From Tsukamurella strandjordii (lineage in GTDB: Bacteria; Actinomycetota; Actinomycetes; Mycobacteriales; Mycobacteriaceae), in assembly GCF_039525985.1 (NCBI RefSeq), contig NZ_BAAAII010000013.1, positions 36,574 to 60,573 of the forward strand: DNA of 24,000 nucleotides. Direction: 5' to 3'. The position numbers and the translations under genes were made by a program. This document shows positions 19,559 to 22,315 of the stretch, in pieces. The notes under the pieces were generated by a model that was given only the letters and a program-made list of their open reading frames with translations, made no database searches and had not been told where the DNA came from. The first letter of the stretch is position 1. The number at the start of each line of letters is the position of its first letter.

Positions 19559-19663
19559 CTATTCGAGCCGCTTCTCCTCTTCCCGCTCCAGGCGGTCGCG
19601 CTCCTCCTGGCGGCGCTTCTCCTCGTGCTCGATGGCCTCTTCGCGGGCGTTCTTGTTGCTCAT
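19559..19663 (-). CDS. 34-codon micro-ORF encoding a hyper-charged E/R/K peptide, ATGA-coupled to the upstream AAA+ gene
   Basis: [34 protein letters not shown]. Its ATG (19663-19661) overlaps the TGA (19662-19660) of the Clp-like gene. Codon third positions are almost all G/C, as in neighbouring genes. It appears in the track only as the tail of shadow ORF 19559..20170. Confidence 0.45.
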   Translation of the reverse strand: MSNKNAREEAIEHEEKRRQEERDRLEREEEKRLE

Positions 19664-22260
19664 GCCTTCTCCTGTTCGTCGGTCGTCTCGGTGGCCTTGT
19701 CGTCGGACGAGGCGTCCGCGGCCTTGTCGTCGGTGGTCTTGTCGTCGGAAGCCGGGAGGCTGCCCTCGGTCACGGTTCCGTCCTTGCCCACCTCGACCAC
19801 CGAGATCACCAGGCCGTCGTCGTCGGCGTCCACGCGCACGGTGTCGCCGGGCACGATCTCGCCCTTGAGCAGCATCGACGAGAGCCGGTTGTCGAGTTCC
19901 TTCTGCACGGTGCGGCGCAGCGGGCGGGCACCGAACTGGGGCTGGAAGCCCTCGTCGGCCAGCCAGTCCTCGGCCTTCTCGGTGACGTCCAGCTCCACGT
20001 CCTGGCCGCGCAGCAGGCCGCGGGTGCTCTCCAGGATCAGCTCGACGATGTTGCGGATCTGCTGCTTGTCGAGGCGGTGGAAGATCACCGTGTCGTCGAT
20101 GCGGTTGAGGAACTCGGGCCGGAAGTGGGCGTGCAGCCGCTCCTTGACCTTCGGGACCACCGACTCCCAATCGTCCTCGGGCGCTTCGAGGATCAGATCG
20201 GCGCCGATGTTGCTGGTGAGGATCACGATGGTGTTCTTGAAGTCCACCGTGCGGCCCTGGGCGTCGGTCACGCGGCCGTCGTCGAGCAGCTGCAGCAGGA
20301 TGTTGAAGACATCCGGGTGGGCCTTCTCGATCTCGTCGAACAGGATCACCGAGTAGGGCTGGCGGCGCACCTTGTCGGTGAGCTGGCCGGCCTCCTCGTA
20401 GCCCACGTAGCCGGGAGGCGCGCCCACCAGTCGCGAGACGGTGTGCTTCTCCTGGAACTCGCTCATATCGAACCGGATCAGCCGGTCCTCGTCGCCGAAG
20501 ACGGTGGCCGCCAGGGCCTTCGCGAGCTCGGTCTTGCCGACACCGGTGGGGCCGAGGAACAGGAACGAGCCGATGGGCCGGCTCGGGTCCTTGAGCCCGG
20601 CGCGCGCCCGGCGCACGGCCTCGGAGACCGCGAGCACGGCCTCGTCCTGGCCCACGACGCGGGCGTGCAGATCGTCCTCCAGGCGGAGCAGCTTCTCCTT
20701 CTCCTCGGAGGTCAGATCGGCCACCGGGATACCGGTGCGCCGCGAGACCACCTCGGCGATGTCGGTCACCGTCACATCCGGGCCGGACGGCTCACCGTCG
20801 GGGGAGATGTTCTTGAGCCGCTGCTCGGCCTCCGCGATCTTGACCTTGAGCTCGTCCGCGGTCTTGTAGTCCTCCGATTCGACGGCGCTGTCCTTCTCCC
20901 GGTTCAGCCGCGCCAGCTCGTCCTCGACGGTGCGGGTGCCCTGGTCGGAGGTCTTGGTGCGCAGCCGGACCCGGGCGCCGGCCTGGTCGACGAGGTCGAT
21001 CGCCTTATCCGGCATGAACCGGTCGGTGATGTAGCGGTCCGAGAGTTCGGCGGCGGCGATCAGGGCGTCGTCGTCGTAGTGCACCTGGTGGTGCTCCTCG
21101 TAGACGTCGATCAGGCCGCGCAGGATCTCGATGGTGTCCTCGACGGTCGGCTCGCTCACCATCACCGGCTGGAACCGGCGTTCCAGGGCGGCGTCCTTCT
21201 CGATGTACTTGCGGTACTCGTCGATGGTGGTGGCGCCGATCGCGTGCAGCTCGCCGCGGGCCAGCGCCGGCTTGAGCATGTTGCCCGCGTCCATGGAGCC
21301 CTCGCCCCCGCCGCCCGCACCGATGATGGTGTGCAACTCGTCGATGAACACCACCAGCTCGTCGGAGTGCTCGCGCACCTCGTCGAGCACCTTGGTCAGG
21401 CGCTCCTCGAACTCGCCGCGGTACTTGCTGCCCGCCACCATGGAGCTCACGTCGAGCGCGATCACGCGGCGCCCGGCGAGCGTCTTGGGCACGTCGTCGT
21501 TGACGATCCGCTGCGCCAGACCCTCCACGATGGCGGTCTTGCCGACGCCGGGGTCGCCGATCAGCACGGGGTTGTTCTTGCGGCGGCGGGAGAGGATCTC
21601 GATGGTCTGCTCGATCTCCTCGGCGCGGCCGACCACGGGATCGACCTTGCCGGCCCGCGCCTCGGCGGTCAGATCGCGGCCGTACTCGTCGAGGGTGGGC
21701 GTGCTGCTCGGGCCCTGCGCCGCCTGCGCCTGCTGCGCGGTCTTGCCGGGCTTGCCCGATTTGCCGGGCACGGCCTGGCCGGAGGACAGGCCGCCGCCCG
21801 CGAGGGTCTGCGCGGCCACGGTGTCCGGATTGTCGGCGATGCCGATGAGGATGTGCTCGGGGCCCACGTAGGACTGGCCGGACTGGGCCGCCCGCTGCTG
21901 GGCCACGCGCAGCGCGCGCCGCGAGGCCGGGCTGAGCGACGGTGCGCCGTCGGCCCCGTCGGGGCTCGCGCTGGCCTTCGCCGCAGTTTCCATCGCGGAG
22001 GCGACCCGATCGGGATCGAGGCCCACCCGCACGATGATCTCGCGCGTCGGCTCGTTCATCGCGGCCGCGTACAGCAGGTGCTCGGGCGTGATCTCGCTGT
22101 TGCCCCAATCGGCCGCGGCCACCTGCGCCTCGACGAGCAGAGTCTTCGCCTGGTCGTTGAGGAGGCGGTTCAGGTCGACCCGCTGCACGGCGGGCCGGCC
22201 CACCGAGTTCCCGAAGAACCGCTGGAAGATGTCATCGAAAACGCCGTCGAAATCACTCAT
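19660..22260 (-). CDS. Atypical two-ring Clp/Hsp100 AAA+ ATPase (ClpC-length middle domain, ClpB-like D2 without a visible ClpP-docking loop, N-terminal extension, acidic DDK-repeat tail)
   Basis: Two Clp_N repeats ([20 protein letters not shown]). D1 has GDPGVGKT and VVFIDELH. D2 has GPTGVGKT and [10 protein letters not shown], with sensor GARPLRR. The start is ATG 22260 (weak GGAAAG SD) or ATG 22275 (track start, no SD). Confidence 0.92.
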
Positions 22261-22315
22261 TTCACTGCTTTCCATTCATCGGTCGGTGGGACGGGTGGAA
22301 CGGTGGTGCACAAGT

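Follow-up and report, generated by a model that had tools for sequence, protein, structure and literature searches.

The 24,000-nucleotide (nt) stretch of Tsukamurella strandjordii DNA analyzed here as a whole (the window; assembly GCF_039525985.1, contig NZ_BAAAII010000013.1, positions 36,574 to 60,573) carries on its minus strand an open reading frame (ORF), 19660-22275, that encodes a class-I Hsp100 protein, referred to below as the window Clp and its gene as clp. Our preferred reading, to which we assign a probability of roughly 0.6, is that this protein is a ClpP-independent threading motor, that is, an accessory unfoldase or disaggregase. Independence from ClpP, taken on its own, is judged likely from the sequence. 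The hexameric double-ring AAA+ motor would thread polypeptides without ClpP, pulling them from aggregates or complexes and then releasing them for refolding; like ClpL and ClpG/ClpK, it would serve as an accessory chaperone under stress. A flexible aromatic/acidic helix at its N-terminus may act as a substrate-contacting or self-regulating element. The initial annotation of the gene had predicted a protease-independent unfoldase, and that prediction still appears to be the best reading. Residue numbers follow the listed 871-aa product of the ORF throughout, and window positions are given for each feature, all on the minus strand.

The second AAA+ module (D2) lacks the tripeptide through which Clp unfoldases dock to ClpP. 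When the window Clp was aligned to the ClpC1 of its own genome and to other ClpC-type proteins, the homologous site (20110-20217) proved to be about 10 residues shorter and without x-G-F, where the genome's ClpC1 reads ...KAVGLGFTQGDSDG...; the alignment thus showed no conserved ClpP-binding loop, as had been seen by eye in the initial annotation. The tripeptide is also missing from all 120 close homologs and from the whole subclade to which the window Clp belongs. In all characterized Hsp100s, loss of the docking loop abolishes ClpP coupling (PMC11006417). These results bear on the idea that the protein still feeds ClpP1P2, either through a non-canonical contact or in mixed hexamers to which ClpC1 supplies the loops. 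That idea draws on the 56% identity between the window Clp and its own ClpC1, and on membership in the same family as Streptomyces ClpC2, a proven ClpP1P2 partner that acts through the ClpP2 pocket (PMC9765437). Besides the missing loop, it has against it that the C-terminal tail varies too much to serve as a substitute docking site, and we consider it improbable.

None of the curated NCBIfam models claims the window Clp. On TIGR03346 (ClpB) it reaches 1018 bits, below the cut-off of 1232, in a match split into two stretches, and the genome's own ClpB is over that cut-off at 1302 bits. Scores for the ClpK (NF033606) and ClpG (NF033607) models are 919 and 915 bits against cut-offs of 1900, and those of the genome's ClpC1 are 80-125 bits lower still (837 and 790); for ClpA the score is 785 against a cut-off of 993. 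Pairwise, a plasmid-borne ClpK is 52% identical across residues 7-819, and a plasmid-borne ClpL 46% identical across 195-825, which covers the two rings only. The best overall match among solved structures is of the ClpC1/ClpC type. No solved structure of the ClpC2-type family introduced below was found among the PDB matches; PDB entry 8xon was considered as a ClpC2 structure and ruled out, as it scores like ClpC1. Because the genome also encodes ClpX and canonical forms of ClpB and of ClpC1 (the latter beginning MFERFTDRAR... and carrying a GLGF loop), the window Clp is a third class-I Hsp100.

Placement was resolved with a maximum-likelihood tree of 40 rows, rooted with ClpB as outgroup, from which long-branch representatives and near-duplicates were left out. 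The window Clp falls outside the ClpC/ClpC1 clade (support 100/99). A separate clade (99/98) unites ClpG/ClpK-type proteins, ClpL and a family marked by an N-terminal aromatic/acidic motif, hereafter the N-motif family, which includes the window Clp; this family is itself recovered at 98/91, and ClpL is its sister at 99/89. Forcing the N-motif family together with ClpC made the tree 24.6 log-likelihood units worse and was rejected by the approximately unbiased (AU) test (p=0.0005), the tested grouping having been named after the tree had been seen. The family was recovered as one group when each ring was analyzed alone, with values in the Shimodaira-Hasegawa-like approximate likelihood ratio test (SH-aLRT) of 86 for the first AAA+ module (D1) and 97 for D2. 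Since the D1-only and D2-only trees place the window Clp alike, it is not a recombination product, and origin as a chimera is ruled out. The original description of a hybrid architecture is misleading, because a short middle domain (M-domain) and a loop-less D2 are the normal build of ClpG/ClpK and ClpL. What holds of that description is the exclusion of both ClpB and ClpC1: the protein is under the NCBIfam ClpB cut-off, outside the ClpC clade and without the ClpP loop.

Judged from its sequence, the window Clp is a member of an actinobacterial ClpC2-type family marked by the extension PFDD[IF][FL]xRFFG...VQRVD[LI]xRLL. It also matches the wider family pattern, PF[DG][DE][FI][LF]xR[FY]FG followed by QRVD[IL]xRL[LM] ahead of Clp_N. 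Proteins of this kind carry generic database names ('Clp protease ATP-binding subunit', 'Chaperone protein ClpB', 'AAA family ATPase'), and the labels 'Clp protease ATP-binding subunit' and 'ClpB' are both unsupported by the sequences. The protein is no orphan but part of a large family whose loop-bearing branch includes the studied Streptomyces ClpC2. The window Clp nonetheless does not lie squarely inside any characterized subfamily, because it is missing the zinc finger of ClpG and the loop of ClpC2 and, unlike ClpL, contains Clp_N.

Within the family, a loop-less subclade with 100% support holds the window Clp together with sequences from Rhodococcus, Prescottella, Nocardia, Mycolicibacterium, Gordonia, Skermania and one Georgenia. 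The Georgenia (Micrococcales) sequence is nested among those of Mycobacteriales, which suggests that this copy may have been acquired by horizontal transfer. Members of the other branch have the same N-terminal extension and carry x-G-F at the ClpC position (e.g., RTVGFATG, GPLGFTAPG, AGLGFAAG). A pattern scan for such loop-type loci, limited to one genome per species, returned 334 loci, and the loop state was judged in the best 80; x-G-F was present in 69 of the 69 evaluable loci among these, from Micromonospora, Streptosporangiaceae, Pseudonocardiaceae, Trebonia and Streptomyces phyllanthi. This loop-bearing, ClpC2-type branch was seen to be very widespread across Actinomycetes.

Streptomyces homologs carry the loop in 120 of 120 cases and start with MTSGFxGP or MSSGFSGP. 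In S. hawaiiensis, the published primer used to clone clpC2 (CEB94_33910) encodes MSSG..., and the one for clpC1 encodes MFERFTD (PMC9765437 supplement); the Clp complement of S. phyllanthi consists only of ClpC1, a ClpC2-type protein and two ClpB. From the primer and by elimination, rather than from the full sequence, we conclude that Streptomyces ClpC2 most likely belongs to the loop-bearing branch of this family. That protein degrades casein, ClgR and PopR with ClpP1P2 via the ClpP2 pocket (PMC9765437); it is a full-length ClpC paralog, distinct from the truncated mycobacterial protein also called 'ClpC2'. It shares with the window Clp the family (98/91), Clp_N, a short M-domain, the overall length and the N-terminal extension, M[TS]SGF...P[FL]GEF[LF]ARFFG...QRVDIGRLM, but differs in its x-G-F loop, which the subclade of the window Clp lacks, with an identity of ~55-58%. 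Across the tree, the loop state requires three changes. Parsimony favors a gain in the ClpC2 branch, since the ClpL and ClpG neighbors are loop-less; repeated loss is favored by the identical position of the loop and its similarity in sequence to that of ClpC, and is mechanistically easier than gain. A single loss from a loop-bearing ancestor was considered too, as a tentative scenario; the tree takes three state changes.

The N-motif occupies residues 8-22 (22210-22254), ahead of Clp_N, as first described, and is strongly conserved. In 40 orthologs of 55-94% identity, its F, D, R, F, F and G are each at least 90% invariant and are followed by VQRVD[LI]xRL[LM], which makes it the most conserved non-catalytic feature; in the window Clp this second element (residues 30-39, 22159-22188) adjoins Clp_N. 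Translation probably starts at the ATG at 22260 (M6), giving 866 aa, rather than at the ATG at 22275, because a Shine-Dalgarno sequence, GGAAAG (22268-22273), lies 7 nt upstream and the N-termini of orthologs agree: those from Tsukamurella all begin MS[DE][FLI]DG or MTEFDG. With this start the extension, put at about 45 aa in the initial annotation, is real but closer to 35-40 aa. In the AlphaFold2 model (mean pLDDT, the predicted local distance difference test score, of 80), the N-motif is a short low-confidence helix with pLDDT <50; a disordered stretch separates it from Clp_N (approximately residues 41-160, 21796-22155), which is modeled with confidence (pLDDT ~90).

ClpL, the sister group, also has no ClpP motif, a short M-domain, an aromatic/acidic extreme N-terminus and an accessory, often mobile gene; it differs in having no Clp_N but its own ~60-aa N-terminal domain with a small alpha/beta core, in matching over D1-D2 only (46% identity), and in its occurrence in Listeria, lactic-acid bacteria and related Firmicutes. 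ClpL N-termini start MANFYGNDPFFNNDMDDVFNQLF or MSNGFFNDDFDSIFRRMM, and the FDDIFQRFF of the N-motif occupies the position of their aromatic stretch (DMDDVFNQLF; FNDDFDSIFRRMM), with Clp_N following in the window Clp. Aggregate binding by ClpL depends on aromatic residues of its mobile N-terminal region, F19 and F23 of a transient helix among them (PMC11006417). ClpG/ClpK proteins share Clp_N (N2), the short M-domain, the absence of a ClpP loop, a C-terminal extension and, in some relatives, an hsp20 neighbor. Their layout after the zinc finger is similar too, the segment from there to N2 matching the family extension: one ClpG-type representative reads FPFEDFFEKTPYQRFDIEDYIS ahead of Clp_N and ClpK reads SGLFEDFLGSDFF after the zinc finger. 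They differ in forming a separate clade, in being known from Pseudomonas, Klebsiella and other Proteobacteria, and in their Zn-binding N1 core (C6/C9/C31/H34), which is present in the ClpK and ClpG-type representatives and, like the aggregate-binding V17 and L21, absent from the window Clp, whose residues 1-45 contain no Cys/His cluster. In ClpG, the zinc-finger core (1-46) binds aggregates, and deletion of a low-confidence helix (47-71) raises ATPase and disaggregation activity (PMC10641755). A hidden Markov model (HMM) of the N-motif gave no significant match to ClpL, ClpK or 150 Hsp100 representatives, ClpL scoring at noise (E ~10-30).

ClpC1/ClpC share Clp_N and a short M-domain, but begin straight at Clp_N (MFERF...), carry an [LV]GF loop and form a separate clade. 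The two Walker A motifs of the window Clp lie 335 residues apart, close to the 337 of its own ClpC1 and well short of the 403 of its own ClpB, in agreement with the ClpC-length M-domain recorded initially; AlphaFold2 models this domain as only a two-helix coiled-coil hairpin (residues 445-490, 20806-20943). ClpB resembles the window Clp in having no ClpP loop and in D2, but its M-domain is ~65 residues longer, and it is the outgroup in the tree. Because the M-domain is of the short ClpC/ClpG/ClpL type, the half of the ClpB M-domain with motif 2, the DnaK recruiter, is missing. A DnaK-dependent, ClpB-like disaggregase would need another recruiter, and the N-motif, with its Gly/Phe- and DIF-like character, might replace motif 2 in this function. 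It may resemble the DIF motifs of the DnaJ G/F region. D2 taken alone does match Thermus thermophilus ClpB best among solved structures (1e-126, vs. 1e-115 for ClpC). However, the short M-domain, the canonical ClpB already encoded in the genome and the grouping of the window Clp with partner-independent disaggregases in the tree all count against such a protein, which we think unlikely.

The motor itself is intact, including a candidate arginine finger (ARGE, residues 339-342). The protein is encoded by the sole long ORF with Hsp100 domains at this position (stop TGA at 19660-19662) and gives matches to two Clp_N repeats, AAA, AAA_lid_9, AAA_2 and ClpB_D2-small. D1 and its lid (20956-21699) contain Walker A GDPGVGKT (21535-21558), Walker B VVFIDE (21337-21354) and a KYRG pore loop (21406-21435); D2 and its small domain (19816-20700) contain Walker A GPTGVGKT (20530-20553), Walker B VILFDE (20332-20349), a GYVG pore loop (20401-20424) and sensor-2 GARPL (19918-19932). 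Both rings and both pore loops are thus fully conserved, which would be needless in a passive decoy or regulator that sequesters ClpC1 adaptors, substrates or ClpC1-targeting natural products without proteolysis. A Clp_N domain without protease coupling would suit such a role, and there is a precedent: the truncated mycobacterial ClpC2 is a protective Clp_N decoy against cyclomarin (PMC10030653). The Clp_N repeat motifs of the window Clp (TPEH and GPEH, vs. GTEH in ClpC) are moreover unlike those of ClpC1, and we regard a decoy as extremely improbable.

Several points weigh against the preferred reading of a stand-alone threading motor. The ClpG zinc-finger core is absent and ClpL has no Clp_N, so the targeting mechanism of those proteins is not simply transferable. 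Only position and appearance to the eye liken the N-motif to the segments of ClpL and ClpG; because the motif profile leaves ClpL and ClpK at noise, homology is unproven and the kinship amounts to a resemblance in position that the tree supports. Nor is the family uniformly protease-free, since Streptomyces ClpC2 is a ClpP1P2 partner (PMC9765437). No operator of a heat-shock regulon, neither an HspR-associated inverted repeat (HAIR) nor a controlling inverted repeat of chaperone expression (CIRCE), was found upstream in the window or in 7 loop-less loci, and the one weak match among 78 loop-type loci is at background. The function of the loop-less members is a prediction, and the open-access literature yielded no paper on a loop-less ClpC-like or ClpG-like protein from Actinobacteria.

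The known stand-alone disaggregases, of the ClpG/ClpK and ClpL types, come from Proteobacteria and Firmicutes and give these bacteria extreme heat tolerance and persistence. In open-access reviews, Actinobacteria are represented only by ClpB, ClpC1, ClpX and the truncated ClpC2 of M. tuberculosis. The window gene points to an actinobacterial counterpart of these disaggregases, and it links Streptomyces ClpC2 with the lineage of ClpL and ClpG, not with that of ClpC. We tentatively entertain a broader, joint proposal, which seems possible rather than probable: the PFDDIFxRFFG extension would be an ancestral targeting or self-regulating element common to ClpG/ClpK, ClpL and the ClpC2-type family, and the family would toggle between ClpP-coupled and ClpP-free forms. 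Members in Streptomyces, Micromonospora and Pseudonocardiaceae would then be protease partners and those in Tsukamurella, Rhodococcus, Nocardia, Mycolicibacterium and Gordonia disaggregases, the loop of ~10 residues being the sole obvious difference between the branches. If true, this would amount to a natural experiment on substrate fate, degraded vs. refolded. The window gene also provides matched loop-plus and loop-minus orthologs for studying the evolution of ClpP coupling and aggregate targeting. Opportunistic and veterinary pathogens carry members of the family (Tsukamurella, Nocardia, Prescottella equi), and an accessory stress chaperone could matter for their persistence in the environment.

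In the window, clp lies directly downstream of a family-1 encapsulin shell gene (22316-23113; Linocin_M18, E=9e-98), itself preceded by a gene for a DyP-type peroxidase cargo protein (23110-24000, its 5' end beyond the window) that ends ...SLRIGSLKGSDR, its C-terminus being the cargo peptide SLRIGSLKG. A C-rich spacer of 55 nt (22261-22315), in which no promoter-like or terminator-like site was found, separates the stop codon of the encapsulin gene from the probable start of clp. The clp gene is probably co-transcribed with this DyP-encapsulin oxidative-stress pair in Tsukamurella, where the three genes may form a stress operon. The order DyP, encapsulin, Clp, small ORF is kept in T. paurometabola (whose Clp is 94% identical), T. 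tyrosinosolvens and Tsukamurella sp. 8F. The shared strand, short spacer without a terminator and conserved order are what would be expected of a dedicated partner of the DyP-encapsulin system, one that unfolds cargo for loading or recycles and disassembles shells. However, no encapsulin lies beside the orthologs in Rhodococcus, Nocardia, Mycolicibacterium and Gordonia or at 20 more distant loci, nor does any of these have an adjacent DyP gene; the neighborhood is a genus-specific context. The Clp protein also has no cargo peptide of the SLxIGSLKG type.

The gene was found, by its N-terminal region, in 8 of 12 Tsukamurella genomes. Four complete genomes without it, from four species, all retain the DyP-encapsulin pair. 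In three of these the locus shows a deletion of clp: one keeps, right behind its encapsulin gene (2337-2573 of its locus), a remnant that covers residues 763-841 and is 80% identical, and two have a dienelactone-hydrolase gene at that place. No clp remnant was found in the locus retrieved from the fourth. In Tsukamurella, clp is accordingly ancestral at this locus but dispensable, and the encapsulin system does not require it; with this, a dedicated encapsulin partner becomes very improbable. In a wider sample of the GTDB family (201 genomes, 34 genera), queried with the N-terminal region, clp was detected in 35 genomes and 7 genera. It is an accessory, patchily distributed gene, and clpK and clpL are comparably accessory and patchy, with a mobile flavor and occasional hsp20 linkage (hsp20 precedes clpK).

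Conserved flanking genes were also sought across distant orthologs and rejected, as flanks are shared within one genus only. In Mycolicibacterium mageritense an HSP20 gene lies ~100 nt upstream of the ortholog. Downstream (7430-9572 of its locus) are a SMODS/DncV-like nucleotidyltransferase gene with an AGS_C domain and two small ORFs, which together look like a defense cassette of the cyclic-oligonucleotide-based antiphage signaling system (CBASS) type; such a cassette would fit an ortholog lying in a variable genomic region. The R. opacus ortholog is flanked by a 2-hydroxyacid dehydrogenase, a domain-of-unknown-function (DUF) gene and transposases, on a candidate plasmid, the replicon CP008949.1, which has no entry in PLSDB. 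Orthologs in Nocardia and Gordonia have unrelated neighbors.

Two of the traits first listed for the protein are real but do not define the family. The G/Q/A/K/P-rich linker between Clp_N and D1 (residues 160-191, 21703-21798) is present and predicted to be disordered, but its sequence is unconserved, and the genome's ClpC1 carries a comparable G/A-rich linker. The acidic, disordered C-terminal tail (residues 837-871, 19663-19767) indeed has three DDK units, and direct repeats in the DNA, also three in number (19688-19707, 19715-19734, 19730-19749), encode them. It is, however, lineage- or strain-specific low-complexity sequence: K-rich, basic tails occur in Nocardia and Mycolicibacterium, and several Rhodococcus and Nocardia have no tail. 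In a 99%-identical strain the tail is 9 aa shorter, and the corresponding 27 nt equal the spacing between two repeats, which points to repeat slippage as the likely cause. Conserved among relatives, then, are the N-motif, the short M-domain and the missing ClpP loop, and not the linker composition or the DDK tail.

Some minor observations concern the ends of the putative operon. At 22283-22306 the spacer has repeated CCACC units on the mRNA strand; those of T. paurometabola and T. tyrosinosolvens are C-rich too (CCACCCC, CCCCTCCCCTCC), with the repeat register unconserved. Just past the high end of the window (contig 60300-61500), a GVG-type GTG seems to be the start codon of the DyP gene. In the three Tsukamurella species compared, a conserved TAGTGT/TAGGGT box lies 7 nt upstream of this GTG, with CATCATCGCACG, also conserved, further up, and the region looks like a leaderless operon start; no HAIR/CIRCE-like palindrome was found there. 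At the other end, a small E/R/K-rich ORF of 34 aa (19559-19663) overlaps the clp stop with its ATG (ATGA) and is identical at 26 of 34 positions in T. paurometabola. There it is followed by a very acidic ORF of 53 aa; at this place the acidic ORF stands alone in T. tyrosinosolvens and sp. 8F, as the 34-aa one does in the window. In T. pseudospumae the Clp protein itself ends ...AREAIGEEVGGDGEGVIAEEEGTS, a match to the acidic ORF, so that this peptide seems to occur in two forms, as a fusion with Clp or as a product of its own.

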